Shown here: positions 14,453 through 54,407 of the stretch, piece after piece
Numbering within the stretch: the stretch's first letter is position 1
Layout of the letters: every line of letters starts with the position of its first letter
IMG/VR virus record: IMGVR_UViG_3300011400_000003
Coordinates: 1 to 60,337 of that record
Length of the DNA stretch: 60,337 nt
Reading direction: 5' to 3' (one strand)
Origin: a virus
Taxonomy: Duplodnaviria > Caudoviricetes
The notes under the pieces: generated by a model
The model's database searches: none
Told to the model about the DNA's origin: nothing
The model's input: the letters and a program-made list of their open reading frames with translations, nothing else
Translations under genes and position numbers: made by a program

Positions 14453-14773
14453 TTATTCCTCAATTCTATGAAATATTACTCCGTCTATATTAAATACAAG
14501 ATTGAATTCTGTCATCTTACTTGGGTCGCCAATTCCTCCGAGACCGAAATCAAGAGAACCATCCCCACGGCTTTCATTCAAAAGCCAACCAGAAATAGCA
14601 CCCTCAACCGTTCGAGGTAAACCAAGAGCATCATATATTTCGTTTAAAAATACATGACCTCTAGAACGTAACATATGATTAAAGTAATTCTCATGTGCTC
14701 GAAGAAAATTCAAGTTCATTTCAGAATTGTCACTCCAAAGTTCGTTGTGTTCATCAAACACACTGGGTTTCAT
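14453..14773 (-). CDS. Stand-alone C-terminal DUF6353-like domain protein
   Basis: GHVFLNEIYDALGL...GW...FNIDG aligns with the C-terminus of 24713..25615. Confidence 0.7.
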   Translation of the reverse strand: MKPSVFDEHNELWSDNSEMNLNFLRAHENYFNHMLRSRGHVFLNEIYDALGLPRTVEGAISGWLLNESRGDGSLDFGLGGIGDPSKMTEFNLVFNIDGVIFHRIEE

Positions 14774-18505: not shown

Positions 18506-18705
18506 TAAGTCTCCTCTCGGTCTGGTAATCGTGCAGCAATAGCATCTACCTTTGTTTCTAATTTATTAATTACTTCAAAAATAGCACTTTCTTTTGCCTG
18601 TTTTAGATCTTCTCTTAACTGATTACCCATCTTGTCGGCTTCGTCCTTGAGGTGTTGTACTTTCGAGTCGATCCTCTCGTTCATCTCAAACCAAGGATCA
18701 CCCAT
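18505..18705 (-). CDS. Small coiled-coil protein
   Basis: TAATG-coupled; GAGGAG RBS. Confidence 0.6.
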   Translation of the reverse strand: MGDPWFEMNERIDSKVQHLKDEADKMGNQLREDLKQAKESAIFEVINKLETKVDAIAARLPDREET

Positions 18706-19169
18706 TATCGCTCCTCGAGTTGTGCGTACTTCAACTCCAAAGGATCTTCGTCAATAGTTACGAACATGGTCTTCAAATATGCTGCAGTACCTGACTTACC
18801 TGTGGCTTCGATGTTCCAATCATAAGGTCGAAATATAATGTCAACTTGCTTGAACTCCACCGAATCCAAAACGCCGATCAAACCTTCGTCCAAGAGCGTA
18901 CGACCAGTAGAGGTGATCATGTATACCTTCGGTGGCCTGACCTTGTACTTAACCTTAATTTGGAGAGTAATCAACTCATCGTCGCCCTCTTCTCTAGGCT
19001 CACGAGTCTTAACGTTCCATCCATCTTTGGCTAAATTGGATGCCGTCTCTTGATCTAAAATAACACAGAAGTTTCGATCACCAGATCGATTAAATGGCTT
19101 TTCCTCCCCGGAGAAATTTGGCCAAATAACTTCTACATCTTCCATAACAACATTGACTTCAGGATCCAT
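18705..19169 (-). CDS. ssb: Single-stranded DNA-binding protein
   Basis: NFSG...GDRNF, GWNVK, AYLKTMFVTIDED; located in the replication operon. Confidence 0.7.
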   Translation of the reverse strand: MDPEVNVVMEDVEVIWPNFSGEEKPFNRSGDRNFCVILDQETASNLAKDGWNVKTREPREEGDDELITLQIKVKYKVRPPKVYMITSTGRTLLDEGLIGVLDSVEFKQVDIIFRPYDWNIEATGKSGTAAYLKTMFVTIDEDPLELKYAQLEER

Positions 19170-24023: not shown

Positions 24024-24713
24024 CTATCTCTCTCTAAATTTTCTATCTGATGAATGTTTAAGATCCGTTGTAGATGCCTGTTCTTCAATTTCGTTGCCAA
24101 GAACTTCTACAGAGTAATGACCCGGATCTCTAATCACTTCGTATTCAGCAAGAAGCTTAGAATTTCGAATATAAACAACGTTCGGATCTTTGGATCCGTG
24201 TCCAAACAGTAACGGACCTAGAATTACTCCAGGATTATAAATTGGTACATTGTCTTCGTCTACTAAAATATCATCTCCAGCGTAATACGTTAGATTTGAT
24301 TGACGATACTCTCGTTCATCCGTAATGAACTCATCCTGATGAAGAATGTATGGTGCTTCCTCTGTGCGTTTACTAGTTTCATCTTCCCAATTCCACACTG
24401 TTCCGTCAGAATCAGTATCAAATATGGTTCGATGTTCTGGTTCTACTGGTTCGCCAAGAGTTTGTTCAATGAATGTCTTTCCTTTTTCAATTACTTCTGA
24501 AAATTCATCTGGAATATCAGTATCGGTTTCTTCTTCAGTATCAGAAACTACAGCTAAATCGCTCATGTCCCAATCTTGTGCAGGAACTGCATGAATGAAT
24601 TTTTGTTGACGCTTACCTAGCAAATATCCGATTCCAAAACCAATACCTAATGCAATAGCTCCTACAATTGCGACAGTTGGATCCGGACGTGGTTTCAAAA
24701 TTTCATCATCCAT
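24024..24713 (-). CDS. Membrane-anchored hypothetical protein
   Basis: N-terminal TM; PYI, LTYYAGD, VYIRN..EYEV. Confidence 0.7.
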   Translation of the reverse strand: MDDEILKPRPDPTVAIVGAIALGIGFGIGYLLGKRQQKFIHAVPAQDWDMSDLAVVSDTEEETDTDIPDEFSEVIEKGKTFIEQTLGEPVEPEHRTIFDTDSDGTVWNWEDETSKRTEEAPYILHQDEFITDEREYRQSNLTYYAGDDILVDEDNVPIYNPGVILGPLLFGHGSKDPNVVYIRNSKLLAEYEVIRDPGHYSVEVLGNEIEEQASTTDLKHSSDRKFRER

Positions 24714-25615
24714 TATGCCTCATCAATCAGATTCCAGACTTCACCATCTACATTGAAGTCAAGCCAAATTGCGGGTTCCCAATTACCTACGCCTTGCTCG
24801 TTTATCCCTTCCCAAATATGGAAATCGATGTATCCATCACCAGGACCGTTCTTGACCCAACCGACAATTGCTCCAATACTACTACGCTCCATACCAAGAG
24901 AATCATATACATCATTTAACAATAGATGACCGTTGGCTTGAAGTCGTTGAGAAGCAATATTCTGTTGACACATCAAGAAATTACGGTTTATTTCTGAACT
25001 GTTTACCCAATTACGATTGTGTTCGTCAAATAACCGTGCGTACGGAGAATGCTTACTCGGATTTACAGTTTCAATAGTCTTCTTCTTACCATCAATTTCA
25101 ATAACTTGCTTCTCTGCATCCAAATATAATGCACGCTCACGTTCTTCACCAAGCTCTTCACGAACTCGAGCACGATATGCTTCGAACGCTTCCATAACAG
25201 CAGCGAGTGTTGCAGAAAGCGCAGCATTACGTTTGGTCAACTGAACATGAGAACCAGTCAAACACGCAATAGAAACACTACCGAGAATAATCGAAGGACC
25301 ATACAACTTACAAATTTTAAGTGCGCCCTTCGTATACACATACATTACATCTCTACGGTATTCTGCTTGTGTATACCGTACAGGATTTTCACTTGTCTCA
25401 GCAAGTTCACTGTAACCACCAACGTCAGTTACAGAATTGAAGTCATCTTTAATCTCGTCAACCACATCGCCTAATCTTAAAGTTGCTCGAGATGAAAGGA
25501 ATGCTGTTCCAATCACTCCAAATACTCCACCTACGAACAGAATATGCGGAGAATTCTTTTTTGTTTTCAGAATTGTTCTAGCAAGTTTGCTAGACACAGA
25601 AGTAGGTAGTTTCAT
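24713..25615 (-). CDS. DUF6353-like membrane-associated protein
   Basis: KNSPHIL-TM...LYGPSI...GHLLLNDVYDSLG...GW...LDFNVDG. Confidence 0.75.
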   Translation of the reverse strand: MKLPTSVSSKLARTILKTKKNSPHILFVGGVFGVIGTAFLSSRATLRLGDVVDEIKDDFNSVTDVGGYSELAETSENPVRYTQAEYRRDVMYVYTKGALKICKLYGPSIILGSVSIACLTGSHVQLTKRNAALSATLAAVMEAFEAYRARVREELGEERERALYLDAEKQVIEIDGKKKTIETVNPSKHSPYARLFDEHNRNWVNSSEINRNFLMCQQNIASQRLQANGHLLLNDVYDSLGMERSSIGAIVGWVKNGPGDGYIDFHIWEGINEQGVGNWEPAIWLDFNVDGEVWNLIDEA

Positions 25616-27398: not shown

Positions 27399-28160
27399 TT
27401 ACAATATCTTCCTATCACTGGCACGAAGATGCTTATAGTCAAATGCCAAGCAAGGTTCACCCTCTGGCGACATTGTTGTAGAAAATTCCAACTCAAGTAA
27501 CTTGTCAGTATCCCAACCTAGATTGTCTGACTCAGATGTGTGATCCAAATTAAGAAGATCATAGAAGTCTGACATTGTTACCCAATAAGTATTCACAACC
27601 ATTTGGTTGATGTCGTTCTCTGCCTTGCGCAGACTTTCCATGTCACTCTTGAAATATCTTCCTGTCCACAACTCACAGCACAGAACCTCTCCTTTACCAA
27701 GCATCAGTATCTGAGAGTTTGGAGGATTATCCGTAATCTTCTTCTGTGCTAACTCGTCACGAATCTTTTGTTCTTTTCCCTTACCGAATTGTTCTATTAC
27801 GTGATCCTTGTACTCTGAGAATGCACGTTCGGTAATGGAATATGCGGCTACTGCAGCAGATGTGCGTCGTCCGGATGCTCTTTGAGATCCGATAATGCAT
27901 GCAATCGTAGCTGCGCCTGAAATCACAGGTGGAATATATAACACCCATGTTTCTTGCACTGATCTTATAAAATACTCTCTACGATTTCTGAACGGTTGCT
28001 CCTTTTTTAATTCCTCCAGTGGTTGGACCGCTTTGAACGACGCTTTCGCCGTTAAATATGATGTCGTTACTACACCCGCAACACCAAGACCTGTGAAAAT
28101 TTCAGGAGAGTTTCTTTTAAGTGTTTTTAATGACCTATTAAAAATATCTGATGCGGTCAA
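27399..28160 (-). CDS. DUF6353-like membrane-associated protein
   Basis: RNSPEIFTGLG...YIPP...GRYFKS...VTMSDFYDLL...GW; start uncertain. Confidence 0.75.
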   Translation of the reverse strand: MTASDIFNRSLKTLKRNSPEIFTGLGVAGVVTTSYLTAKASFKAVQPLEELKKEQPFRNRREYFIRSVQETWVLYIPPVISGAATIACIIGSQRASGRRTSAAVAAYSITERAFSEYKDHVIEQFGKGKEQKIRDELAQKKITDNPPNSQILMLGKGEVLCCELWTGRYFKSDMESLRKAENDINQMVVNTYWVTMSDFYDLLNLDHTSESDNLGWDTDKLLELEFSTTMSPEGEPCLAFDYKHLRASDRKIL

Positions 28161-28285
28161 CGGTTCCTCATTTCTCGGACAAATATCCAAATTAGCCAAA
28201 GTCCTCCAGTGATAACTGTCATGAAACAGTCACCAATGAACTTGAAGAATCCGTACTTTTTCTTACAACAATACGCTGGATACAT
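28157..28285 (-). CDS. Small membrane protein (42 aa)
   Basis: MYPAYCCKKKYGFFKFIGD...TGGLWLIWIFVREMRNR. Confidence 0.65.
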   Translation of the reverse strand: MYPAYCCKKKYGFFKFIGDCFMTVITGGLWLIWIFVREMRNR

Positions 28286-42056: not shown

Positions 42057-42857
42057 CTAAGGCGTACTAGAAATTTCATAGGTTTGAGCATCCAAAAATT
42101 CTCCAAACACCTCACTAATAGCAAATTCTCCAGCAGCAGGAAAAGTAATAGGGTTCTCACCTTCTGGTAATGATGAATATGCGGTCCAAGTACCATCACC
42201 ATTGTCCACAACTACGACACTGAACCAACTAAGAAGATAAATAAGCAACTCAGACATTGGAATAAGTTCTGCTTCTGTATCTTCGGTTCCATAAAGCAAA
42301 TTTTCTAGTAATGTCAATAACTCTGGATCAATGTCTGTTGAATCAATAATAATGTGGGCCGTTGGACGAAAACCAATTACTTCTTCTGGTACAGAAAAAA
42401 TATCCCATTCAAATTCAGTAATAGAAGGAGAACCAGTATTAGTTTCAAAAGCTTTATCTCTAGGAATAGCTGTAACATTATACAAAATATGAATTTTATA
42501 GCCTAGATCCTCGTCAAGAGAGTTTCCTATTTTAGTTCTATATGAGAGTCCAAAGCTCTTAGGTTTTTGATTTGTAATATACATACCAGGATTAACTTGA
42601 ACTACGCCTTCTAAATCTGAAAATTCATCTGGATATGTTATAGCCTTCATAGACGCTTCGAAATCCCCAAGAATCACTAAATCATTAATTTTCATCCCAT
42701 CCCAATGAATGGGTTTTAACTGTTGATCTGATTTTTCTACAATTGAAGTAAGACCATTCCAAGGAACTGCCGGAGCGGATGGCGGATACAAAACGCCTCT
42801 ATCTACACCAGATTCATACTCTCTATCTTCAGCACTATCCCAAACTAAAACCGACAT
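42057..42857 (-). CDS. Second major-tail-tube-like protein
   Basis: WD..R.YE.GVDRGVLY, WNGL, FGLSYRT, GYKIH match 43425..44300. Confidence 0.8.
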   Translation of the reverse strand: MSVLVWDSAEDREYESGVDRGVLYPPSAPAVPWNGLTSIVEKSDQQLKPIHWDGMKINDLVILGDFEASMKAITYPDEFSDLEGVVQVNPGMYITNQKPKSFGLSYRTKIGNSLDEDLGYKIHILYNVTAIPRDKAFETNTGSPSITEFEWDIFSVPEEVIGFRPTAHIIIDSTDIDPELLTLLENLLYGTEDTEAELIPMSELLIYLLSWFSVVVVDNGDGTWTAYSSLPEGENPITFPAAGEFAISEVFGEFLDAQTYEISSTP

Positions 42858-42867
42858 GTTCCTCCTC

Positions 42868-43410
42868 TCAGCCCTTTGTACCTAATTGCGCTCTTCTTCT
42901 AGCATTCTCTTCCGCATAATGTCTAGAAAGTTCACCTTTCGACATCTTCTTAGGCTTTGAATTTTTAACTCCACAAATTCTGATTAAAGAAAACAATCTG
43001 TTCAAATGCCATTGTTCACATTCAAGTGGAATGTTGAAAGATACCATCCAGTAATAAATTAACTCTGAAGTGATAACCTCTCCTGGACCCCGAGATCCTG
43101 GCATGTTGCCAAAAGTTGTTGCAGATTGAGGAGAATCAATATACGCTTGAATCTCATCAACATTATTCTGCGTCAAGTTTTTAAAGATCTCAGGGTCCAG
43201 ATTTGGTTCAATACTCATGCATCTAATGTAGTCAAGAACTTCCTCCGAATCTTTCTTCACAGAAGATAGAAACGGTTTATTATGAATTGACTCCCATTTT
43301 GACACTGAAAGTAAAGAATGCTCTAACTTAACTAAAACACCACCAACTGTTGAAAATAAATTTTCAACTTCGTCATAAATCTCATCTTCTCCAATGGTGA
43401 TTATTAGCAT
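42868..43410 (-). CDS. Tail assembly chaperone-like protein
   Basis: LEHSL.S.SKWES, TSELIYYWM, WHLNRL; directly after the tail tube gene. Confidence 0.7.
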   Translation of the reverse strand: MLIITIGEDEIYDEVENLFSTVGGVLVKLEHSLLSVSKWESIHNKPFLSSVKKDSEEVLDYIRCMSIEPNLDPEIFKNLTQNNVDEIQAYIDSPQSATTFGNMPGSRGPGEVITSELIYYWMVSFNIPLECEQWHLNRLFSLIRICGVKNSKPKKMSKGELSRHYAEENARRRAQLGTKG

Positions 43411-43424
43411 TCCTTAACTCCTAA

Positions 43425-44300
43425 TTAACTAAAATTAATGAACCATGCGTTAACGGCAGTAGGACCAAAGACATATCCAGCATTTGGCTGAGCAGTAACA
43501 ACGGTGTCTTCAGTGATAACCACATCGCCAGTAACAACTTCACCGTCAATGTAGTATGTAACGCCGGTAACCACCGGAATAGTAATTTCATCGGCTCCAG
43601 AGTCATACGTCGGAGCAGTAAGCATGTCACCAGTGATAACAGTAAACGTGCCATCAAACAATGCAATAACAGCATCCGGCGTGGGAAGTGCAGGATCAAC
43701 TCCAACAGTACCATAAAGAGCCGTCTCAAGAGCGGCTAATGCAGCAGCATCTGCAGTCCTTGAGTCGATAGTAATAATTGAAGTCGGCTTCAAGCCAGTA
43801 ACAAGCGCCGGAGTAGTAGTAACTTCCCAACTAAACGTAATGGGTTCTGGAGAGTCACTAACTGTGGTGTATGCTTTCTCAGACGGACTGGCCTTGCACC
43901 CCCAAATCAGGTGGAGCTTATAACCAAGATCATCACCTTCAATGTCGTTACCAACTTTTGTTCTATACGATAAACCAAACACCTTACGAGCCTGTTGGCC
44001 AACAGTAACACCCGGCTCAGGTACAGAAAGACCATCAAACTCAGCAAATTCATCTGGAAAAGTAAACGCTTCAAGCGTTGCACCAAATTCTTCTGCTGAA
44101 AAAAGATTAAGATACTTGATGTTATCTGCAAATTGTGCGTTAGGTTCTGCGCCGGAAGGCTTTTCGGTAACGGAAACTAAACCGTTCCAAGCAACCCCAT
44201 CGTCGTAAACACCTCCAGCATCGGGAATGTAAAGGACGCCGTGGTCAACGCCGGTTTCGTAAAACCGTTCGCCGGTGCCGTCCCATGTAAGTGCGGTCAT
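43425..44300 (-). CDS. Major tail tube protein with C-terminal Ig-like domain
   Basis: ETGVDHGVLY, AWNGL, ADNIKY, FSWEVTTTP. Confidence 0.88.
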   Translation of the reverse strand: MTALTWDGTGERFYETGVDHGVLYIPDAGGVYDDGVAWNGLVSVTEKPSGAEPNAQFADNIKYLNLFSAEEFGATLEAFTFPDEFAEFDGLSVPEPGVTVGQQARKVFGLSYRTKVGNDIEGDDLGYKLHLIWGCKASPSEKAYTTVSDSPEPITFSWEVTTTPALVTGLKPTSIITIDSRTADAAALAALETALYGTVGVDPALPTPDAVIALFDGTFTVITGDMLTAPTYDSGADEITIPVVTGVTYYIDGEVVTGDVVITEDTVVTAQPNAGYVFGPTAVNAWFINFS

Positions 44301-44946: not shown

Positions 44947-46989
44947 TTACAGAGCCGTAAAGGTCCAGTCATCAACCTCACTGGTTGCAAAGTACTTGCC
45001 CGAGGCAGGAGTTGCAACGATCTCAACCGTCTCACCCGAAGGAATCGTGTAAGGCGATCCAGCGTTATCAACAACGGTATCGGTGTCAGTACGTGTGTAC
45101 ACGACGCCAGTGGTGTCATTAATAGTAAGCTCACCGGTCTCCTCATCGAATGTCGGAGCCAGAGGAGTAACCAGAACATCACCCGAAGCAACCTTACGGA
45201 TAACCAGAGCCGACTTCAGCTTGGTAAGAGCGCCGCAAAGACGGGTTTCAATCAGGTACTTGTGCTTGTTGTAGTCAATGTCGAAATCGTCGAACAAGTT
45301 GACTTCGCCACCCTTAGTGGCACCAAACACATAGTCAATGGGGTTCACGATAATGCCAAGAAGCTCTTCATCATCGTCCATTGCCTCAACCGGAATGATG
45401 CTTGCAACACGCAGAACAGTCGCAACCTCGTCCAAGCTCCTGTAAAGCGAACGACCAAGCGTATCCTTCAACAGAAGGAACATGGCAATGACCGTCTCGG
45501 AGGTGTAGAGATTCGGCTGTCCACTACCCTTGTAATACTTGCGATTGGTGATAACCGCGTCGATGAATTCCTGAATCGACGAGCTTGCGTCACCAATGTT
45601 GACGTAAAGGGTGGTCACATACAATTCGTGATCAGTAGCGATCGGACGAATGTTAGCTTCCTGAATCTTGTCTTCATCTGAAATATCCCGACCATCGCCC
45701 ATAAGCGCTGCACGAGCGATTTCCTCGTCGAGCATGATCCGCATCTCAGCCTTGAGCCAAGACACGATATCAAAGTCGGTGATGTCGACAATGTCGTCAC
45801 GGTCCAGAGACTGCTTCTTGTAGATAGTCTGAGGAGTCGTAGTACGACGCAGAATCGGGAAGAACTCTTCCTTCTTCAGATCACCCTTAATGTAACCACG
45901 GGCTCGAGCTTCGTCCATCGTAATATCCGCAGCAAAGGTCTTGATACGACTAAACGGGCTCTTACGAGTGGCGGCAAGAAACGAGCCTACCCATTCCGTA
46001 CGACGCTGAAGAAACTCGGGAACTGCATCGGTTGCAACAGCATCTGGGAACAGAATATCAATGTCCGTAATACCGTGAGACAGTGCATAGTTCTCTGCAG
46101 CGTGCTTCAATGAACCGGTACGAATGGCGTCTTTGAGGATCGCATCACGATCTTCATGAGAAAGAATCGACTCTCCTTCCTTACCATCATCACCGCTTTC
46201 AAACACGTTGTGCTTCACTTCTCCACCCTTCTTTTCTTTGTCATCGTCGTCGTCTTCGTCATCGTCCTCATCGGAAGACTGCTTCATGTCACTCTTCTTG
46301 ATTCCAAGAGCTTCTCCAACGAGGAACTGAACTACTTCCTGTTGCTCGGTGTTCATTGAAGCATAAATATCCCCAACAGTACGATCATCAGCATGCTCGA
46401 TGTCTTCACCGCTTCTCACACCAATCAAAGTGTGGAGAAATTCACGGTCTTCGTCATCCATCTTATCGAGAAACTCGACAATATCCTTCTTTGCTTCGGT
46501 TTTGCTACCCATTCCTCCACCTACTGTGTTGGTGTGCTCGAAACTGAGCCCAGTGTAAATGATTGCTTCATCTTCAATAATCTCATCCCCATCATCATGG
46601 CGGATGGTAATAGGATCAATAAGAGCGCCAGGATTAGCGCCACCAAGTACAAGACTAACTTCACGGATTGCCCCGTGAAACACTTTCTTTCCTCGTTCAA
46701 TGAGTTGATTAGCCCAGATGGAAAGCATAGTGATGTCGCCATGTTGGACTAACCCTTTAGCATGCTGCGCTTGCCTAGAATCGTTGAAATATGCACTACA
46801 CCAAACACCTTCTGGGCGATTTTCAAGAATTGCATGGCCCAAAACATTCTCTGGTGTCTTTTTATCATGCTGCCAAACAAGAGGAACCGTAAGGTTATCC
46901 TGATGCTCGAAAGCGTTGGGCATGATTGTGCGGCCGTCGGTGCATTGAAGCCCTGCCTTGGTGGCCCAGCCGCAGAAATCTGCTTCCAT
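44947..46989 (-). CDS. Prohead protease-scaffold-major capsid fusion with C-terminal Ig-like domain
   Basis: VPLVWQH, LSI, EVSLV (HK97-type protease); acidic linker; LDEEIARA.L.GDGR; FDIDYN...ETR. Confidence 0.92.
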   Translation of the reverse strand: MEADFCGWATKAGLQCTDGRTIMPNAFEHQDNLTVPLVWQHDKKTPENVLGHAILENRPEGVWCSAYFNDSRQAQHAKGLVQHGDITMLSIWANQLIERGKKVFHGAIREVSLVLGGANPGALIDPITIRHDDGDEIIEDEAIIYTGLSFEHTNTVGGGMGSKTEAKKDIVEFLDKMDDEDREFLHTLIGVRSGEDIEHADDRTVGDIYASMNTEQQEVVQFLVGEALGIKKSDMKQSSDEDDDEDDDDDKEKKGGEVKHNVFESGDDGKEGESILSHEDRDAILKDAIRTGSLKHAAENYALSHGITDIDILFPDAVATDAVPEFLQRRTEWVGSFLAATRKSPFSRIKTFAADITMDEARARGYIKGDLKKEEFFPILRRTTTPQTIYKKQSLDRDDIVDITDFDIVSWLKAEMRIMLDEEIARAALMGDGRDISDEDKIQEANIRPIATDHELYVTTLYVNIGDASSSIQEFIDAVITNRKYYKGSGQPNLYTSETVIAMFLLLKDTLGRSLYRSLDEVATVLRVASIIPVEAMDDDEELLGIIVNPIDYVFGATKGGEVNLFDDFDIDYNKHKYLIETRLCGALTKLKSALVIRKVASGDVLVTPLAPTFDEETGELTINDTTGVVYTRTDTDTVVDNAGSPYTIPSGETVEIVATPASGKYFATSEVDDWTFTAL

Positions 46990-47003: not shown

Positions 47004-48257
47004 CTAAGAATTCGGCGGCTGTTCTTCCGGCTGATTCTTAGGTTTTAATTCGCCAGTATTAACAACTACACCTGGTTGTGGCATGTTGCTATTAACTAAT
47101 TCATCTGCTTTAGGATCTTGCGAAGGAGGAAGACCCATGCCAGCTCTAACTTCGTTGCTAGACAAGATTTCATTACGAGTAAATTTGTCTGCAATTTCAG
47201 CAAGATCTTTAAGCGGAACCAACTGGAACGGATTTCTAAAGTACTGAACTGCTTTTAGATCTTTAGTACCTTGATACCCAATGAATGAACGCTGCATTGC
47301 TTCTCTAATAGCATCAATGATTGGTTTAACTGTTCTGTTGAAATAGTTAATCATGGTTGCTTCGGTAGCTGTGCCATTCATTACCTCTTCAGTAAGACCA
47401 AGTTGACTATAAAGCATTGCGGTAAGGTACTCAACTTGCTTAAGGAGGTTATTCTCAGCCGGTCGATTTAATTGTGTGACCTTTTCGGTGCTATCAGTAT
47501 ACGCAATACCATACTGACTACCTTTTAATTGAAGTTCAATGTCAGAACGACGCGTTTCTGCTTGTTGCCGTCGGGCCTCAGACTTAATTACATACGGAAG
47601 TTGAATAATCAGGTCTAACTTTCCAGAACTCGACTGTTCATCAACCGCATCAAGTAAAGACAACTTTTTAATGAGTCTTTGAAGGGTTGAATTCGGCTCA
47701 TTCATTACAGAATAAAGCGGATTTTCAACAATTGCAACAGAATTTTTCTTTAACGTAATCTCTTCTCTTAAGCCCTTTGCCTCATTATATACTCTGACTC
47801 TGACGTGGCTTGGGTACCAAGCACGAATTTCTCCTACACGAAGACTATAAATATCAATAGTTTCTTCGCTACTAGGATCAATTGTTGTATCTACTGGAAC
47901 AATAGCAGCACATCCACCATCAAACAAAGTCAAAGCGATGTCTTGTCTAAATGCTCGAGGCGCTTGATCAATATTCGCTTCTAGAGTTAAACAATTATTA
48001 AAAAAACTTTCAATGTCTTCTAGATAGCGTTTCTTATCATCCAATTTTACATGTCTGAAGTCAATTCCAGCAACATCAATAGCAATACGATTGTAAATTG
48101 AAGAAATGATAGTTCGTTCGTTATTGAAACTTCTTCTTGGTACTGATGGAGAACTACCACCAGAATATGTTGGTGTACCAGTACCATAATCTAATCTTGT
48201 TTCTTCCTGACTACGAAAAGCATTAACAGCTCTTCGTAACCGAGCACGAATAGCCAA
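47004..48257 (-). CDS. Portal protein
   Basis: IYNRIAIDVA, GKLDLIIQLPY, NEILSSNEVR. Confidence 0.9.
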   Translation of the reverse strand: MAIRARLRRAVNAFRSQEETRLDYGTGTPTYSGGSSPSVPRRSFNNERTIISSIYNRIAIDVAGIDFRHVKLDDKKRYLEDIESFFNNCLTLEANIDQAPRAFRQDIALTLFDGGCAAIVPVDTTIDPSSEETIDIYSLRVGEIRAWYPSHVRVRVYNEAKGLREEITLKKNSVAIVENPLYSVMNEPNSTLQRLIKKLSLLDAVDEQSSSGKLDLIIQLPYVIKSEARRQQAETRRSDIELQLKGSQYGIAYTDSTEKVTQLNRPAENNLLKQVEYLTAMLYSQLGLTEEVMNGTATEATMINYFNRTVKPIIDAIREAMQRSFIGYQGTKDLKAVQYFRNPFQLVPLKDLAEIADKFTRNEILSSNEVRAGMGLPPSQDPKADELVNSNMPQPGVVVNTGELKPKNQPEEQPPNS

Positions 48258-48290: not shown

Positions 48291-48353
48291 CTATGGTGCT
48301 GGAATGCCATGATGCTCAAGGAACTCCGATAAATCCATTTCCATAGTATTCAC
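48291..48353 (-). CDS. 20-aa micro-ORF consisting of the FLEH-HGI tag
   Basis: MNTMEMDLSEFLEHHGIPAP; AGGAGG RBS. Confidence 0.5.
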   Translation of the reverse strand: MNTMEMDLSEFLEHHGIPAP

Positions 48354-48381: not shown

Positions 48382-48777
48382 TTAGGTGTAAGCACCAACT
48401 TGATTCAGAACCGTTCCATCAAAGAAGAACAAGGCCACACCATCGGCAGCAAGAGTGAACTTAGCAGCAGCGCTTGCAGTCCCACCAAGCTTAATAGCTC
48501 TAGCGTCTCCACCGTCAAACGCGACGGTCGGAGTTTCTGCAGAGTTTCCATTGGTGAACTTAATGGCAACAAGAGTGTTTGCCTCCGGTTCAGCAGCAGT
48601 AGTAGTCTTCGCTGCAGTACCAATTGCCGTTGCAACAGTGATCGGAACTGATTCTAAATCACTAGCAGTAAACGGTGAACCACCTGCATTAAACAAAGCA
48701 ATTTCTGCGGTTGGCCGATCAAGTCGAAGTGTCTGACGACGTGAACGCTCAACAACATTATACTGATGAACTTCCAT
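48382..48777 (-). CDS. Ala/Thr-rich structural (decoration/fibre-like) protein
   Basis: TAAKT...IKFTNGNSA.TPT fibre-type motif. Confidence 0.6.
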   Translation of the reverse strand: MEVHQYNVVERSRRQTLRLDRPTAEIALFNAGGSPFTASDLESVPITVATAIGTAAKTTTAAEPEANTLVAIKFTNGNSAETPTVAFDGGDARAIKLGGTASAAAKFTLAADGVALFFFDGTVLNQVGAYT

Positions 48778-48796
48778 TTTGAATCCTTTTTCTAAG

Positions 48797-49339
48797 TTAC
48801 CGCTGAGCGGTTTTGATGAGTCGGTTTACAGTTCTTTTTAGTCGTTGAGATTCAACGACATCTTTAACTTTACTTATACTATTACTCATTACTGTTTGGC
48901 CTTTTGGACTAGAAAGGAAAGCAGCACCTCCAGCAGCGATTGCTACAAAAGCGGCTTTCGTTCCCATTTCTCCAGTAATTCGACGAGCAATAGCACCGCC
49001 GGTTTGCTTAGCAGCTTTGCCCTTATTTTTTCTAGATCGTTCTGATCGAGCTTTGGATGCGTGCTTAGATAAATCTTGATTATTAAGATGTCTGTCAAAC
49101 GCCTTTGCGTAAGTTGGATCTTTCTTTTTCTTTGCTTCTACGGTAGCCTTAATCAATTTTCGACGAGTTCCAGCACCTTCGCCAAAGAATAATTTTGCTC
49201 TTGCGAACTCTTTTGCATCTTTAGCAGCTGCACGATCAGTGCCTCTAGAAGCACCGCCTCGATCATCATTACGAATACCCCATCGCATTCCTTTAATACC
49301 GAAGTGTTCTAGGAACTCCTCGGTTTGTAAATCGTTCAC
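48797..49339 (-). CDS. HxGxKGMRWG-tag protein (putative internal virion protein)
   Basis: FLEHFGIKGMRWGIR; basic body; C-terminal hydrophobic segment. Confidence 0.75.
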   Translation of the reverse strand: MNDLQTEEFLEHFGIKGMRWGIRNDDRGGASRGTDRAAAKDAKEFARAKLFFGEGAGTRRKLIKATVEAKKKKDPTYAKAFDRHLNNQDLSKHASKARSERSRKNKGKAAKQTGGAIARRITGEMGTKAAFVAIAAGGAAFLSSPKGQTVMSNSISKVKDVVESQRLKRTVNRLIKTAQR

Positions 49340-49352
49340 TTGAACACCTCCT

Positions 49353-50882
49353 CTATAAAACTGCGGCTACTTTTCTATCAAATCTCTTATTAAGAATTTC
49401 TGCAAAGTTTGAGAACTGACTAGCATCCATCTTACCTTCAGCACGCATTCTTCTTAACGAATACATTTGTGTTTCACGTTGACTTTCGATGAACTCTTGA
49501 GCTGTTTGAGATACGTTTCTAGCTCTTCCAGCATTGCCTCTAGCATTATAACCACCAAAGTTAGGAGGATCAAACTTAAAATTACGTGGACCACTGTTTT
49601 CTTGACGAAGAGCATATAAAGCTAGAGCAAATGGAACTGTAAAAACTAAACTTTTTGCGGCGCCAATTGCGGCACCCTTTGCGGCTTTTCTTCTCATCTT
49701 TCGTGCTCTACGTTGACGAGGTGTCAATTTTACATCACGAGCAAGCCTACGTTTATCATTTCTAACACCCCATCGCATTCCTTTAATACCGAAATGCACA
49801 AGAAAATTATCTACGTCATTAATTGCCGCCATAAATAATTCACCTAAAGTCATTTGCATCAATTTAATCTCAGATTCCCCAACAAAGGTATGCGCATTTA
49901 AGGTATCAAGTTGAAAATCCGACCCATTTAAAAGACGCAATGGTGTTTTAGCAAGTCTTCCTGAATCATTAAAATCAATTAACGCATTATATCCACTATC
50001 TTTTACCATCTTAAAAAATTGTTGTACATCAGGATGACCGTCCAGCCCATTAGCCCATTGAATAACAAAATTTCCGAAATTTTGTTTAGCTAATCCATCA
50101 ATTGCTTTTTCTTTATCTACTTCACTTAATGTTCCCCAAATTCTTCCAACTGGCGTATTGGCTATAATTCTTTGATCTCTAAGAAGGTTTTTAAAAATAT
50201 TAAACGTTTCTTCTCCTGATGGCGCTTTAATTGGAACCTGAGATCTAAGATTAACCAGCCAACCACTTTTATTATCATAACCCCAAGTTTTCCACCATTT
50301 TGGTAATTCTGCTTTATAACGTTGAACATCTGAATCTTCAAAAGCAGCGAAAAACCCTTGAGGTCTAATTTCTGTTTCTTGAATGGTCGATAATCTTTTA
50401 AAAATAGAACCAGCAGGAAGATCTATTTTAGTGCCCCAATGATCGTCTAAGCCAGGTACAACCCCTTCTAACGTACTCATTGGAGATTCTGAAAGAACTT
50501 TAAGTTGCTCTAAATTAAGCTGAGCATAATCATCTTGAAGGCCTTTTACATCTAATAGAAAATCGCTGCCAACACCATACTTTTTACCTAAATATATAGC
50601 TCCACCGGCTAAAAGTGCACCACCAACACCTATACCAACACCTAAAGCAATTTTCTTTTGCTTATCGGTTAAATGAAAACCTTTATCGTCATCTTTTCCG
50701 GTATATGGACCGTACTTTCGGTTAAGTTGATCGCTTCGAAAATCTTTATCTGAAAATACGCCCTTAATTTTCTTTTGTACATCATCATTAAATTGTGAAA
50801 TGCTATTTGTGATATCTTTTCTAATCCCCCATCGCATTCCTTTAACACCATAGTGCTCAAGGAAGACGTCTACGTCATTCAC
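49353..50882 (-). CDS. Double HxGxKGMRWG-tag protein (two fused modules)
   Basis: FLEHYGVKGMRWG at the N-terminus and internal FLVHFGIKGMRWG; two TM-like segments. Confidence 0.8.
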   Translation of the reverse strand: MNDVDVFLEHYGVKGMRWGIRKDITNSISQFNDDVQKKIKGVFSDKDFRSDQLNRKYGPYTGKDDDKGFHLTDKQKKIALGVGIGVGGALLAGGAIYLGKKYGVGSDFLLDVKGLQDDYAQLNLEQLKVLSESPMSTLEGVVPGLDDHWGTKIDLPAGSIFKRLSTIQETEIRPQGFFAAFEDSDVQRYKAELPKWWKTWGYDNKSGWLVNLRSQVPIKAPSGEETFNIFKNLLRDQRIIANTPVGRIWGTLSEVDKEKAIDGLAKQNFGNFVIQWANGLDGHPDVQQFFKMVKDSGYNALIDFNDSGRLAKTPLRLLNGSDFQLDTLNAHTFVGESEIKLMQMTLGELFMAAINDVDNFLVHFGIKGMRWGVRNDKRRLARDVKLTPRQRRARKMRRKAAKGAAIGAAKSLVFTVPFALALYALRQENSGPRNFKFDPPNFGGYNARGNAGRARNVSQTAQEFIESQRETQMYSLRRMRAEGKMDASQFSNFAEILNKRFDRKVAAVL

Positions 50883-52627
50883 TCGAACGCCTCCTTGTTA
50901 AGCTTGTAAGCAACATAAGCGTCCATCATAGCAGAAACGTTATCAATCTTGTCTTCTGCTCGTTTCTTGAACAATTTTCGATTTCCGTTAGTATCTTCCA
51001 GAGTAACAGCATTACCCATAGCAAAAGTCATAAGTTCTTGATCAAATATAAGTGCTCGTTGCTCAGCTAAAATCTTCAATTCGCCAAGAGGAACCGACTC
51101 TGTTCTTGCTCCTTGAATGACTTTCTCTATACCATACGGGCCGTTTTCTTGTTCCCATCTGGTAACAAAGGCCTTAGCGTTGTATGGATCGAAGCCAAAG
51201 CATCGAACATCATACTCTTTTGCTAATATAAAAGCATCGAGATCATCATAAACTTCATTATCAACATCAAGAACGTTTCCGTCCATGATAACAAGACTTC
51301 CCTCTCGAATGAATTCTTCATACTTCATTCGCATGGCGCCTGGAAGTTTAAGCAAAGTCAATTCTGTAATATAACTTCGAGTCTTGACGCCAAAGCTTCC
51401 GTTTGAAAGCGGAAACAGAAAAGTAAACGCACAGAAGTCGTCGCCTTGGGATAGGTCAGCACCAAGAGCACACGGAATCTGCCAGAACTCTTTCGGTGGA
51501 TGTGGAAGAGTGTCTTCGTAAGTGAAGAAATATGTATAGCCTTCCATTGGAATACCGAAACGCTTAGCTAAAATATCATTACGAGCAGCAGGAGCTTTCT
51601 CGGCTCTTTCTACATCTAAATGATAGACGTCATACGTTACGGTTTTTCCTAGATTAGGCTGAGCTTTCAACCACATCTCTGGTTGAGCAACTTCTTCAAT
51701 ATCGTCAAGTTTGTAATGCCAGATTGAAATATGAGGAGCGTGATACTCTCCTCTAAGAATTTTACCCAATTCTAATTTAATAGTGTCGCCAGATCCGTTT
51801 CTAACCGTTCCTTCAGAACTAATAGCGACAATCAACCAGTCGTCCATCTTGGAAGCGCCCTGCTCGATTGCTCCAACGACATCCTCTCGAATATCGCCGG
51901 AAAGCCATTCGTCAACAGTTGAAATTTTTGGTCTTAATCCCTGCAGCTTGTTGATAGCCATAGGACGAATCTCAAGTATTGACCCAGTTAGAAAATTTTC
52001 AATTCCCTTTTTAGTTGAAGCCAGTTTTTGACGCATAGCGGTTGATCCACTAGTGTTTCTAACTGTTCCCTCTGTAAGGAATTTGAACAACGGACCTCTA
52101 GCTCTGGTAATTGCAGTTCTAAAAGGGGATAGAACTTCATCTGCTTGCTTCATGGTTGGAGCGGTATTGATTTGGTGAGTGGTTGCAACATCAACATTAA
52201 GAAAATATGCTTGAATGCAACAAGCATACATTGATTTAGCAGCACCTCTAGCCACAATCAAATATTGTTTTGTAACTAATCGTTTCTTAAGTAATTTCGT
52301 AACGTATCCACCAGGTTCACCTTCTTCTCCTGGTTGATAAACGCTTCGTTCAACATAGTAATACCAACCAAATATCTGTTCTGCCCATACTTTGAACGTA
52401 TCAAGAAGATACAAATCAGTACCATCAGTAAGCGTTAATTCCCATTCGCAATACTTGATGAAACCTTCAACTGCTTCTGAATCATACCAAATATCTGGAT
52501 TAGCTATAAGATCATCGATACGATTCATCTCTAGAGAAATTAATTCGTTTACAGGAATTTCTCCACGTAAAACTTGGTCTCTAAATATACCATAGTACTG
52601 TGGCGTAGCGGTATTTGATAAAACCAA
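50879..52627 (-). CDS. terL: Terminase large subunit
   Basis: VARGAAKS Walker A, VDEW Walker B, GADLS, FDPY, KIDNVSAMMDA. Confidence 0.95.
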   Translation of the reverse strand: MVLSNTATPQYYGIFRDQVLRGEIPVNELISLEMNRIDDLIANPDIWYDSEAVEGFIKYCEWELTLTDGTDLYLLDTFKVWAEQIFGWYYYVERSVYQPGEEGEPGGYVTKLLKKRLVTKQYLIVARGAAKSMYACCIQAYFLNVDVATTHQINTAPTMKQADEVLSPFRTAITRARGPLFKFLTEGTVRNTSGSTAMRQKLASTKKGIENFLTGSILEIRPMAINKLQGLRPKISTVDEWLSGDIREDVVGAIEQGASKMDDWLIVAISSEGTVRNGSGDTIKLELGKILRGEYHAPHISIWHYKLDDIEEVAQPEMWLKAQPNLGKTVTYDVYHLDVERAEKAPAARNDILAKRFGIPMEGYTYFFTYEDTLPHPPKEFWQIPCALGADLSQGDDFCAFTFLFPLSNGSFGVKTRSYITELTLLKLPGAMRMKYEEFIREGSLVIMDGNVLDVDNEVYDDLDAFILAKEYDVRCFGFDPYNAKAFVTRWEQENGPYGIEKVIQGARTESVPLGELKILAEQRALIFDQELMTFAMGNAVTLEDTNGNRKLFKKRAEDKIDNVSAMMDAYVAYKLNKEAFE

Positions 52628-52646
52628 CTAAACCACCTCCTATGAT

Positions 52647-53039
52647 TTAAATAAATGATGAACCTGGTTTAAGATTAATTCTTCTACCTTTATGTCTATT
52701 AATAAATGCCGCAATTGGTTTTCCTGCAGGACTGTTTGCAATAGCTGCAACAGAAGAAATAAGCCCTGCAGTAGCAACAACTGCTTTAATATGCTTTTCG
52801 CCTCGTTTAATTGTTCCAGGATTAAGACGATCAAAATTCTGCTCTAAACCAAGTCGAGTATTCACTGTTTGTAATTGTTTATTGGTTAAAGAAGTTTTTG
52901 GCTTCTTTCGAAGATCGTTCGCTGTTTTATAATCTACAGTTACTCGACCGGTTCTTGAGTCTACCTTATTACGAATACCCCATCGCATTCCTTTAATACC
53001 GTGGTGTGCAAGCACACCTTCTACATCCATAAATATCAC
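52647..53039 (-). CDS. HxGxKGMRWG-tag protein
   Basis: VLAHHGIKGMRWGIR; LTNKQL...RL.LE; hydrophobic segment. Confidence 0.75.
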   Translation of the reverse strand: MIFMDVEGVLAHHGIKGMRWGIRNKVDSRTGRVTVDYKTANDLRKKPKTSLTNKQLQTVNTRLGLEQNFDRLNPGTIKRGEKHIKAVVATAGLISSVAAIANSPAGKPIAAFINRHKGRRINLKPGSSFI

Positions 53040-53054
53040 CTCCTTATTAATAAC

Positions 53055-54407
53055 TCACGCTAGAGCAGCAATCAAATCAGTTTCCATGGCATCTCTAGTT
53101 GCGGTCCATGGGTTTCCTGTTTCTGGATCGTTTGCTCCAGAGTTTGCTAAATTAACAACTTCGTGTGGATCAGTATCCAACGCATACAACTCAAATTCGT
53201 CTTCAGGAAAATTAATGTCAAAACAAAAATGATTCGTGTGATACCTTATAAGTTTACGAGTACTAGTACTAATTGCATCAAATGATGGTTGGTCTTGCGG
53301 AATACTAAACGGATCACCTAAAGGATCGGTTCTACCCTGGATAAGTAATTCTCTATCATCATAATTAATAGGATTAACTGCTACATCAGTTAAATCTTCT
53401 CCAGTTACATCAGTAAGACCTGGAGTTACACCTTGTATGGCACAAATTGTAGATGTAATATCTATGTTAGTGGTCTGGGGTGTTACTATGTTATTCTCTG
53501 GGAAGGAAGGACCTGCACATATTAAAGGAACCCTAAGAGATCCGTAATCATATGGTGTGTTCTTAGCAGGACCAGTTACCGCCTTTAAAAGAACCTCTCC
53601 ATAATGAATCGAATTGTCATTTGTAAATATAACGTCAGTATCGCTCATATCTATAAGATCTAAAATACTTGCTAAAAATGCGTCAGCTCCACTACATTCT
53701 CGAAGTTGTCTACGAAACAATTGACGAATAGCATTTCTATCATCTGTATCTAATGCATTACGTAACTGAACCCAATGGGCTCTAAGATTAAGTGATGTTT
53801 CTTCAATTATGCTATGCTTAGCATGACTCCAAATATGATTATGTTGAGGTCGAGGATGCATGGGATCATGGGGATTTGTTGGAGCTACATATAAAAACCA
53901 AGGCTCAGTAGCTGCTGCAAGAAAATCTTGAACCTGGGTATAATAGTAATCTAAATGATAATCAGACGGTGTTGAAACTCCTCCTGGACTACCATTATAA
54001 ATAGAATATCCATGTGCCCACCCAAGTTTACCGGCAGCATTATGCACTAGCTGACGCCAAAAATCCCAACCATCACCAACCGGTCGTTCGTCATTTAACA
54101 TTCCTCGATCATTTAAATACTTACCTATAAGTCCTGTATAAATCCCATCATCATTCAACCAAGCAGCAATAGTATTATCAAAATCGTAATCGACATTATC
54201 TAAATCATAATCATTATTATCAAAAACACCATGGTGTTTACCCAATTGACCAGTCATAAAACCAACTCTAGCCGGTTGGCAAAGACCAATTGACTGTCTT
54301 GTATTAATAAATGTGGTGCCTAATCGTTTTAACCTTGATAATGTTGGCATATAAAACGAACAATCATATCGCATGTCGTCAGTAACAAACATCAAAGTGT
54401 TAGTCAT
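53055..54407 (-). CDS. Formylglycine-dependent (type I / S1) sulfatase
   Basis: TDD, CQPAR..FMTG, GKYLN, PWFLYV...PH, NDN, K..Y...RVPL, ELY.L.TDPHE..NLA; no signal peptide. Confidence 0.88.
   Translation of the reverse strand: MTNTLMFVTDDMRYDCSFYMPTLSRLKRLGTTFINTRQSIGLCQPARVGFMTGQLGKHHGVFDNNDYDLDNVDYDFDNTIAAWLNDDGIYTGLIGKYLNDRGMLNDERPVGDGWDFWRQLVHNAAGKLGWAHGYSIYNGSPGGVSTPSDYHLDYYYTQVQDFLAAATEPWFLYVAPTNPHDPMHPRPQHNHIWSHAKHSIIEETSLNLRAHWVQLRNALDTDDRNAIRQLFRRQLRECSGADAFLASILDLIDMSDTDVIFTNDNSIHYGEVLLKAVTGPAKNTPYDYGSLRVPLICAGPSFPENNIVTPQTTNIDITSTICAIQGVTPGLTDVTGEDLTDVAVNPINYDDRELLIQGRTDPLGDPFSIPQDQPSFDAISTSTRKLIRYHTNHFCFDINFPEDEFELYALDTDPHEVVNLANSGANDPETGNPWTATRDAMETDLIAALA

Follow-up and report, generated by a model that had tools for sequence, protein, structure and literature searches.

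A short peptide tag flanking a phage terminase gene evolves in concert within genomes and coincides with switches of homology between cargo genes in Gordonia relatives

Why do otherwise unrelated genes of one phage carry a short peptide tag whose coding DNA is identical even at synonymous positions? The question is raised by the window studied here, a stretch of 60,337 nucleotides that represents a complete phage genome of 60 kb. Its large terminase (50879..52627, minus strand), with about 80% amino-acid identity to the terminases of Streptomyces and Gordonia phages, is flanked by three genes that together contain four copies of the motif H-x-G-I/V-K-G-M-R-W-G-I/V-R, all on the minus strand. 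Copy c1 (49262..49327) lies at the N-terminus of a 180-aa ORF (48797-49339), copy c3 (50814..50879) at the N-terminus of a 509-aa ORF (49353-50882) whose start overlaps the terminase stop, and copy c2 (49752..49820) inside that same ORF, at about residues 355-376. Copy c4 (52971..53027) is found at the N-terminus of a small ORF directly upstream of the large terminase (52647-53039), the start of which is probably the ATG at 53030 (52647-53030, 127 aa), as in a 127-aa database entry. This gene belongs to the most conserved tag-bearing family, in which LTNKQL..RL.LEQNF and NSPAGK motifs are also present. Three of the four tags are thus N-terminal, 16-22 residues into the ORF. The residue preceding the tag His varies (E/A/S/T/Y), and outside the tag the proteins have 11-22% of their flanking residues in common.

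The motif is covered by Pfam DUF7211 (PF23847), an entry whose profile has 25 positions and a gathering score of 27 bits. The same 25-position motif is recognized above the curated cut-off in the window and in the copies of relatives. In the window, the three proteins score 36.6, 83.3 (in two stretches), and 33.5 bits, and the DNA-level scores of the four copies are 47.6 (c2), 46.6 (c3), 39.3 (c1), and 35.7 bits. The Pfam entry gives the motif only, whereas the multi-copy layout around the terminase, the concerted evolution, and the breakpoints are features seen here. Literature searches by family name and motif strings returned no description of the motif, its function, its arrangement, or its concerted evolution, and nearly all tag-bearing genes are annotated as hypothetical.

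The identity at the DNA level is extensive. On the plus strand, positions 49268-49301 equal positions 52968-53001 over 34 nt (ATTACG...TACCG), the genes themselves being encoded on the minus strand. The pairwise in-register exact runs among the four copies measure 34, 27, 25, 19, 19, and 19 nt, which confirms the original prediction that the tag DNA is identical over 34 bp between two genes 3.7 kb apart, over 27 bp with the internal copy, and over 19 bp with the fourth. The 19-nt core occurs exactly four times in the window (at 49278, 49768, 50827, and 52978), compared with 0.01 expected occurrences, and four matches were obtained in none of 100 shuffles. A repeat search of the window returned a single four-copy family of direct repeats, 67 nt long. 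The use of common codons could in principle generate such identity, and ATT, GGT, and AAA are indeed common in this phage genome. When tags were drawn from the codon usage of the window itself (15,380 codons), however, 19.9 ± 3.8 of the 52 comparable codon pairs were identical, compared with 42 observed, and at least 42 were reached in none of 200,000 simulations; the 34-nt run was reached in 3 of 20,000. The three tag glycines are encoded, by position, by GGT, GGA, and GGT/GGG, with a choice that agrees across the copies, and the tag arginine is CGA in all four copies although CGA makes up 19% of the genome's Arg codons. This pattern is unlike simple optimal-codon choice, and GC-matched genomes have different codons at these tag positions. 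As the sole source of the identity, codon bias or translational selection is therefore refuted; the original prediction had named this explanation as its own refutation, and it now has next to no probability.

The tags of one genome evolve in concert, in their synonymous positions as well as in the variable basic residue (K/R/H). The original prediction had proposed a comparison of synonymous identity within and between genomes as a check, and the values are higher within: across the 13-codon tag, synonymous identity reaches 0.63 when the tags come from one genome (0.81 for the window), compared with 0.42 between GC-matched genomes and about 0.39 expected from codon usage. The within-genome value was reached by none of 2000 permutations, and 16 of 17 multi-tag genomes show higher identity within than between. 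With a looser motif set, the values are 0.556 (498/896) and 0.428 (8001/18,697), within-genome identity being higher in 34 of 44 genomes. Exact runs of at least 19 nt were seen in 30% of 60 pairs within genomes, compared with 2.5% of 2943 pairs between genomes. For 273 triplets, a tag was compared with one from its own genome but a different cargo and with one from another genome but the same cargo: the same-genome tag was closer in 189, equally close in 21, and more distant in 63. The same-genome tag prevails in 15 of 18 genomes and, for the window, in 24 of 27 triplets. Against the trend stand those 63 triplets and three genomes, and one genome (L086) has a within-genome identity of only 0.2. 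Of 18 multi-tag genomes, 14 have a single K/R/H state, compared with 4.9 expected (0 of 5000 randomizations), and the residue at position +10 likewise shows far more uniformity within genomes than chance would give. The K/R/H state changes 17 times on a terminase tree of 64 tips, compared with 21.2 times when the labels are shuffled.

Similar tags within a genome might also stem from a recent duplication of one tag gene, after which the cargo diverged or was replaced illegitimately, with no need for ongoing exchange at the tag. This would suit the location of c2 and c3 within one ORF and the leader codons that they have in common (AATGACGTAGA), as well as the near-duplicate adjoining modules of some relatives (for example in locus L014, with a flank amino-acid identity of 0.44). 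We nevertheless consider it improbable. Orthologues of each window cargo are present in other genomes at 47-62% amino-acid identity, so that the cargo lineages predate the genome splits, yet the tags group by genome; toward the genomes with these orthologues, codon identity at terminase synonymous sites is 0.40-0.52, near saturation. Leaving out similar-flank pairs does not lower the within-genome signal (30 pairs, 0.66), and the K/R/H state flips on the terminase tree as often as given above while being uniform inside genomes. Another explanation, which we rate as quite improbable, is that one receptor keeps the tag amino acids alike, with the synonymous identity arising incidentally as starting codons that were already alike mutated in parallel. 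The uniformity of the K/R/H and +10 residues is what such co-adaptation predicts, but identity that is purely synonymous (third bases of the Gly, Lys, and Ile/Val codons) is left unexplained by it, and breakpoints at the tags require recombination regardless. Moreover, a low-power search for columns covarying with K/R/H found none in the terminase (top score equalled by 193 of 300 shuffles), the portal (213/300), or the protease N-terminus (50/300).

A signal at the level of nucleic acids, which the original prediction had offered as its alternative, would make the 19-34 nt element an RNA structure, a regulator or small-RNA site, or a set of packaging-enzyme boxes. The recognition boxes of pac and cos sites are often found near the terminase gene, which the repeats surround here, and similarity within a genome combined with divergence between genomes is the expectation for a coevolving DNA or RNA site. 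Between genomes, though, the third codon positions are free to vary while the peptide is invariant. An Rfam search of the tag sites gave no match at E ≤ 1, and the RNA folds of the four sites differ (z-scores of -1.1, -0.2, -2.2, and 0.0) and have no common fold. In Streptomyces relatives whose ends are defined, there is just one tag, located about 2.3 kb inward of the end, and the tag motif is present in 41,598 representative proteins at E ≤ 0.001, often three to five times per long protein. The alternative thus found no support and appears very improbable.

If recombination acts at the tag, homology between genomes should change there. This was mapped in five cultured Gordonia phages (Fazel, Schwartz33, Pherobrine, Secretariat, and Gill), in which homology between genomes indeed switches at the tag: 24 of 70 internal ends of alignments of at least 200 nt fall at a tag in both partners, while tag windows make up only 2-4% of each locus. 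Alignment extension over the conserved motif could contribute in part to the enrichment of right-hand ends. In the comparison of Fazel gp16 with the Pherobrine gp16 context, identity is 0.83-0.73 upstream of the tag and at background downstream, whereas Fazel gp16 and Pherobrine gp17 are at background upstream and 0.92-0.93 identical downstream. Among same-cargo pairs, 12 of 36 have an upstream identity of at most 0.63 (random 60-mers: mean 0.53, 95th percentile 0.62). The unit that is exchanged, inserted, or deleted thus extends from one tag to the next. For the window itself, megablast returned no match, and hence no relative close enough for mapping exchange in its own lineage. In 80 more distant metagenomic loci, those ends of long alignments that are near the tag concentrate at the terminase stop, at -60..-31 nt (329 ends), and only 132 lie between -30 and +59 of the tag. 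In the cultured relatives, mosaic breakpoints were therefore found at the tag, as the original prediction required, and in the distant set mostly at the terminase stop. Cargo following the tag is highly variable, the 17 first genes downstream of the terminase falling into 13 cargo clusters.

Taken as a whole, the explanation that we favor, and hold to be rather probable, is that a DUF7211 tag evolving in concert serves as a recombination point for cargo swapping and may be a virion address. Homologous recombination or gene conversion would act on 20-70 nt of tag homology and would both homogenize the tags and shuffle the cargo. The main reading of the original prediction, that recombination or conversion at the tag swaps cargo domains, is supported in this form, with the choice between conversion proper and repeated crossing-over being a matter of inference. 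The phage encodes its own recombination system, consisting of a single-strand annealing protein (18705..19169, minus strand) and an exonuclease (3042-3596), both recognized by PHROG profiles (phrog_4787, 1.5e-54; phrog_3953, 2.3e-71), which probably assist recombination at the tag. A shufflon or other invertible segment finds no counterpart here: all copies are direct repeats on one strand, and no invertase or integrase was found among the 62 window proteins searched against PHROGs. The homology on offer, an island of 34-67 nt, is short for conversion to work efficiently, and direct repeats on either side of the essential terminase gene would also give lethal deletions.

What the tag does as a peptide is a separate matter. 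The tag genes follow one another directly between the terminase and the portal (47004..48257, minus strand), a slot that they fill with variable content; a single further ORF (48382-48777) lies in this slot, with matches to unnamed phage families of 500-1042 aa. In structure models the tags are disordered (pLDDT below 50). The cargo domain of the 509-aa ORF (49836..50441, minus strand; about residues 148-349) has a predicted ADP-ribosyltransferase/RES-like fold, with the ART-PolyVal family as its Atlas lead, and acetyltransferases and 2H phosphoesterases are found as cargo elsewhere. Most cargo has no known domain: among 43 multi-tag proteins scanned, eight were domain-bearing (five GNAT, two 2H ligase, and one glutamine deamidase). 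Two annotations point to the virion, namely that of Lactococcus phage 1706 orf7, which contains two degenerate tags and whose virion presence rests on its GenBank label "structural protein," and that of one PHROG tag family labeled as virion structural protein in the database. We give nearly even chances to the idea that the tag is a disordered docking or address motif that directs the cargo to one shared site, the procapsid or virion being the likeliest. The prohead protease fused to the major capsid protein (44947..46989, minus strand) is then a candidate receptor, although the covariation search described above pointed to no binding partner.

Functions other than addressing are possible, although we assign them a lower probability. 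The tag may be a processing site in multi-tag proteins, a DNA- or packaging-motor-binding element with a basic linker, or a component of a module for membrane targeting. Two tag modules are found in the window's 509-aa ORF, and the best database matches, 500-1500 aa long, have three to five tags each. The net charge of the 30-residue stretch that follows the tag averages +4.2. Of 70 modules, 28 contain a hydrophobic segment, among them every one of the four in the window, a feature that would fit a membrane role too. In addition, the most conserved tag gene occupies the position expected of a small terminase, and no small terminase subunit is annotated in the relatives. Processing need not compete with addressing, however, as cleavage and addressing are combined in the capsid targeting of T4. 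The second module of the 509-aa ORF is present in some relatives and absent in others, and c2 follows an in-frame ATG (49842-49844) whose ribosome-binding site, AGGTG, is weak, so that the C-terminal module might be made separately.

Several known systems resemble this arrangement. In T4, the capsid-targeting sequence (CTS) is a short N-terminal peptide common to the internal proteins IPI-III and Alt, and encapsulin cargo-loading peptides dock varied cargo inside an HK97-fold shell. Among the cargo here are enzymes typical of injected effectors; should the address reading hold, the tag would act like either of these peptides. With the CTS, the tag shares its use as a short N-terminal peptide on several unrelated proteins of one phage; with the encapsulin peptides, the likeness of a short, Gly-rich, disordered peptide is purely conceptual. 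T4 Alt is described as an ADP-ribosyltransferase that is packaged and injected (PMC5512222). The tag differs from the CTS in that its phage, a siphovirus whose protease is fused to the capsid protein, is of an unrelated group, and in that the motif is also found at internal positions, with several copies per protein. Polyvalent phage proteins, for which packaging and injection are predicted (Iyer et al. 2017, PMC5512222), are encoded beside virion genes and combine two to fifteen effector-type domains in a single chain. They and MuF-fused toxins are similar in being multi-module proteins next to portal or terminase genes with ART, GNAT, and phosphoesterase-type domains (PMC5512222), whereas here most modules have genes of their own, connected through the recurrent tag, in place of one giant protein. 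The searched passages of PMC5512222 mention neither Gordonia or Arthrobacter phages nor the tag motif.

The original prediction had also drawn an analogy to polymorphic effector systems. In CDI and Rhs loci, a conserved motif precedes a variable C-terminal toxin, and orphan cassettes recombine. The analogy holds insofar as a constant short motif is followed by variable toxin-like cargo and homology switches at that motif in the Gordonia relatives. It fails for the other hallmarks, since neither an immunity gene nor secretion genes were found among the scanned window proteins (10 with Pfam, 62 with PHROGs). Furthermore, the constant part is here about 13-25 residues long and starts separate small genes in a phage head cluster.

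The tag motif was found at 537 sites in 174 cultured actinophage genomes. It can be tentatively proposed that DUF7211 is the address label of a cassette system not described before, belonging to a very large group of phages (actinophages, Lactococcus 1706-like phages, and uncultured kin), in which a disordered peptide loads exchangeable effector enzymes into the capsid for injection, the tag DNA provides the homology for swapping, adding, or dropping cassettes from tag to tag, and recombination keeps the labels of a genome in step. A tag that is both a loading and an exchange signal would account for the long-noted variable block of small genes between the actinophage terminase and portal. It would also offer a sequence handle for injected phage effectors, candidate anti-defence enzymes included, and a natural peptide for putting foreign proteins into phage heads. 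At the DNA level, the tag would represent a clean natural case of a coding motif serving as a recombination hotspot.

A truncated fifth tag is located just upstream of the portal gene (48291..48344, minus strand; weak profile match at 48303-48335) and was also recovered as a member of repeat family D3. It forms a 17-codon ORF (MEMDLSEFLEHHGIPAP followed by a stop) with its own AAAGGAGG ribosome-binding site, ends where the K-G-M-R-W-G core would start, and looks like the remnant of a lost cargo gene.

The window, 60,337 bases long, is one complete viral record in which nearly all genes lie on the minus strand. Direct reading of the DNA shows a shared 34-nt sequence at 49268-49301 and 52968-53001, and the exact in-register runs between the tag copies measure 34, 27, 25, 19, 19, and 19 nt, so that the 34-bp identity and the shorter runs of 27 and 19 nt named in the original prediction are confirmed to the base. 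The window contains exactly four occurrences of the 19-nt core (at 49278, 49768, 50827, and 52978), against 0.01 matches expected in shuffled sequence, and none of 100 shuffles contained four. A repeat search places the four tags in one direct-repeat family of 67 nt with 70-81% identity, whose coding sense is H-x-G-(I/V)-K-G-M-R-W-G-(I/V)-R. All four copies exceed the Pfam cut-off for DUF7211, and on this sequence criterion the repeated element is a member of that family.

The tags are carried by three genes on the minus strand. A 180-aa ORF (48797-49339) has its tag at the N-terminus, a 509-aa ORF (49353-50882) has one at the N-terminus and one internally at about residue 355, and a small ORF of probably 127 aa (52647-53039, probably 52647-53030) bears an N-terminal tag and lies directly upstream of the large terminase (50879-52627, minus strand), which has tag genes on both sides. 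The tag genes precede those for the portal (47004-48257, minus strand) and a protease-capsid fusion (44947-46989, minus strand). A fifth, truncated tag is found just upstream of the portal gene in a 17-codon ORF (48291-48344, minus strand) that codes for no more than the leader and the initial half of the tag. It has its own strong ribosome-binding site and reads MEMDLSEFLEHHGIPAP-stop, with the break exactly at the expected start of the K-G-M-R-W-G core, and resembles the remnant of a deleted cargo gene, broken off inside the tag. Beyond its tag, the family of the protein encoded at 52647-53030 (minus strand) has a second conserved stretch, LTNKQLQ..N.RL.LEQNF.RLNP, together with an NSPAGK motif (alignment A5), and similar stretches are also C-terminal in several multi-tag proteins (alignment A4).

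The tags of one genome resemble each other at synonymous sites more than they resemble those of other genomes. Across 13 tag codons, synonymous codon identity was 0.63 within genomes (38 pairs in 17 genomes; 0.81 in the window) versus 0.42 between genomes (672 pairs with G+C within 3%), which bears out the comparison that the original prediction had proposed; about 0.39 is expected from the codon usage of each genome. The within-genome value was the higher one in 16 of 17 genomes, and it was reached by none of 2000 G+C-binned permutations. With a looser motif (159 tags in 64 non-redundant records), 498 of 896 codons were identical within versus 8001 of 18697 between genomes, with within-genome identity higher in 34 of 44 genomes. 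Exact runs of at least 19 nt were present in 30% of 60 within-genome pairs versus 2.5% of 2943 between-genome pairs. The classical test for concerted evolution, in which each tag was compared with a same-genome tag of unrelated cargo and an other-genome tag of homologous cargo, is positive: in 273 such triplets, the same-genome tag was closer in 189, tied in 21, and further in 63, and it was closer in the majority of triplets for 15 of 18 genomes. The cargoes of the window have orthologues at 47-62% identity in four related loci (L015, L016, L033, and L068), whose terminases share only 0.40-0.52 of the codons at identical residues with the window and are therefore near saturation at synonymous sites. 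Taken together with the closeness of same-genome tags, this means that the tags of the window were homogenised long after the split from every sampled relative. The basic residue before Trp (Lys, Arg, or His), the only core position that varies freely, points to the same conclusion. Among 18 genomes with several tags, 14 have a single state at this position (4.9 expected; 0 of 5000 shuffles), yet on a terminase tree with 64 tips it switches 17 times, close to the 21.2 times obtained with shuffled labels.

Codon bias alone, which the original prediction had named as an explanation that would undo it, does not account for this identity. When the four 13-codon tags were redrawn 200,000 times from the usage of 15,380 codons in the window's long ORFs, 19.9 +/- 3.8 identical codon pairs were obtained on average with a maximum of 39, so that no simulation reached the observed 42 of 52, and a 34-nt identical run appeared in 3 of 20,000 codon-usage simulations. 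Glycine is encoded by GGT, GGA, and GGT/GGG according to its position in the tag, and arginine by CGA in all four copies, a codon making up 19% of Arg codons; together with the simulations, these position-specific choices argue against simple selection for preferred codons. A signal acting at the nucleic-acid level had been put forward as the alternative source of the identity. It finds no support, as the third positions of tag codons vary freely between genomes, Rfam has no family matching 48500-53300 at E<=1, and the folds differ among the four tag sites (z-scores of -1.1, -0.2, -2.2, and 0.0). A start-site signal was considered because of AAAGGAATG inside the tag and was rejected, since the real starts own separate AAGGAGG sites and AAAGGAATG is present because the coding of Lys-Gly-Met dictates it. 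A shufflon was likewise dismissed, given that the repeats are direct and no invertase was found among the 62 window proteins scanned against PHROGs.

Recombination or gene conversion at the tag, the reading favored by the original prediction, is supported by the within-genome identity and by breakpoints in cultured Gordonia phages, although the expectation of breakpoints at the tag held in these phages and was not borne out in a distant metagenomic set. In the latter, 329 ends of long alignments near a tag cluster at the terminase stop (-60..-31 nt), with just 132 ends between -30 and +59, and these ends are not in favor of breakpoints at the tag. Fine mapping was performed on the Deejayvirinae group of Gordonia phages, which share 73-92% DNA identity (Gill and Tanis, 98.9% identical, were counted once). 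Alignments of at least 200 nt between Fazel, Schwartz33, Pherobrine, Secretariat, and Gill have 70 internal ends, 24 of which coincide with a tag in both of the phages compared and at the same offset, although tag windows make up only 2-4% of each locus. Fazel gp16 and Pherobrine gp16 (acetyltransferase) have identities of 0.83, 0.68, 0.82, and 0.73 upstream, 0.92 in the tag, and 0.48-0.55 (background) downstream, and the profile is flipped for Fazel gp16 and Pherobrine gp17, with 0.52-0.60 (background) upstream and 0.92-0.93 downstream. For Fazel gp17 and Pherobrine gp18, identity is 0.97 up to 40 nt before the tag, 0.73 in the last 30 nt, and at background downstream; here, the ribosome-binding site and leader go with the upstream segment. 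Among 36 different-genome tag pairs with a cargo DNA identity of 72% or more, 12 had an upstream identity of at most 0.63, the baseline from random 60-mers being a mean of 0.53 with a 95th percentile of 0.62. The extension of alignments over the conserved motif may explain part of the excess of right-hand ends at tags; the left-hand ends and flipped profiles are beyond such an explanation. The Gordonia ends and profiles thus indicate that the unit of exchange extends from one tag to the next. Among the genes of the window are those for a single-strand annealing protein (18705-19169, minus strand) and an exonuclease (3042-3596), a type of phage system known to recombine short or diverged homology.

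The tag is widespread among related phages. The terminase of the window has ~80% protein identity to its counterparts in Streptomyces (Scapunavirus) and Gordonia phages, which are high in G+C, yet the window has a G+C content of only 42%, with AAGGAGG ribosome-binding sites; related loci range from 36 to 60%. No match among cultured phages was obtained by megablast with 7.5 kb of the window, and the phage group has been linked to Lactococcus 1706-like phages in a preprint (bioRxiv 10.1101/842583). When viral contigs were scanned, 239 related stretches were recovered, and 80 loci among them were retained. The strict motif detects 79 tags in 51 records (the window is one of them), and a profile built from the tags detects 161 in 77 of 84 records. 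Of 60 loci with sufficient sequence, 43 have a tag gene no more than 600 nt upstream of the terminase, and 33 of 69 loci have one directly downstream. The nearest upstream tags belong to one conserved family in 34 of 36 cases; the first gene downstream falls into 13 distinct cargo clusters in 17 cases. Cultured phages contain 537 tag sites in 174 records, nearly all from named actinophages (Arthrobacter 63, Gordonia 55, Streptomyces 44, and a few others), with seven copies in Rhodococcus phage ReqiPoco6. Among 1.84 billion representative proteins searched with a profile, 41,598 match the tag at E<=0.001, the best matches having 3-5 tags in proteins of 500-1500 aa. A Pfam scan covering 43 of 150 listed tag proteins identified GNAT acetyltransferases (5), 2',5' RNA ligases (2H; 2), and a papain-fold glutamine deamidase toxin domain (1), with the tag as sole Pfam match in the remaining 35. 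In Gordonia phages Fazel, Schwartz33, Pherobrine, Secretariat, Gill, and Tanis (loci L088-L095), where no small terminase subunit is annotated, the gene immediately preceding that of the terminase bears differing labels ('RNA ligase', 'phosphoesterase', or hypothetical). A tag and a conserved LTNKQL-type module form the end of its product, which means that in these phages an enzyme is fused to the terminase-proximal tag module.

In the AlphaFold model of the 509-aa protein, the tags (residues 1-44 and 348-386) are unstructured (pLDDT below 50), and the small terminase-proximal protein is modeled as helical with low confidence (pLDDT 61; about 50 in the tag); such predicted disorder would fit a short linear docking motif. 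The 30 residues past the tag are basic (mean net charge +4.2). A hydrophobic Gly/Ala-rich segment occurs in 28 of 70 modules, including all four of the window; it lies 30-100 residues past the tag and in those modules only, for which reason a Tat or signal peptide was rejected. The central domain of the 509-aa protein (pLDDT 70-95) has a predicted fold resembling NAD-using toxins, with the MbcT RES toxin as best Foldseek match (E 0.018), followed by NatT, diphtheria toxin, ParT, Tse6, and Tne2. Independently of Foldseek, a protein atlas places it with RES and ART-PolyVal clusters (0.86-0.87), which serves as a lead only, and Pfam at E<=10 returned a chance match only. Some support for an association with the virion comes from database annotations: orf7 of Lactococcus phage 1706, which lies directly upstream of the terminase of that phage and contains two degenerate tags, is a 'structural protein' in GenBank, and one tag-sharing PHROG family is labeled virion structural protein. 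For phage polyvalent proteins with ART and GNAT domains encoded beside virion genes, packaging and injection have been predicted (PMC5512222).

As a reasoned proposal, we advance the hypothesis, tentatively, that the likeliest role of the tag is that of an address peptide bringing changeable cargo to the procapsid or virion; it may instead be a processing site or a DNA- or motor-binding element, or have a membrane role. No column of the terminase (64 sequences), portal (38), or protease N-terminus (27) covaried with the variable basic residue above shuffles. Like the capsid targeting sequence of T4, the tag is one N-terminal peptide common to several cargoes, the packaging and cleavage known from T4 being an analogy only here. 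The swapping of cargo by recombination at a conserved motif recalls the junction motifs of polymorphic toxins; no immunity genes were found, and no secretion genes among the window proteins scanned (10 against Pfam, 62 against PHROGs). A literature search returned no paper naming DUF7211 or the tag motif strings, and actinophage genomics papers, in the passages searched, note gene insertions between terminase and portal but do not mention the tag motif.

Some further genes of the window deserve mention. A 450-aa sulfatase-family protein (53055-54407, minus strand; Pfam Sulfatase, 2.3e-22) adjoins the tag and terminase genes, an unusual kind of enzyme for a phage structural region. A 910-aa protein (313-3045, minus strand) matches end-to-end a PHROG labeled RNA-dependent RNA polymerase (YonO-like), and this putative RNA polymerase is described as a signature of the phage group (bioRxiv 10.1101/842583). 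Three paralogues of phrog_2152, a family without known function, are scattered through the replication region (14453-14773, 24713-25615, and 27399-28199, minus strand), and two paralogous major tail protein genes (42057-42857 and 43425-44300, minus strand) are separated by one gene (42868-43410).
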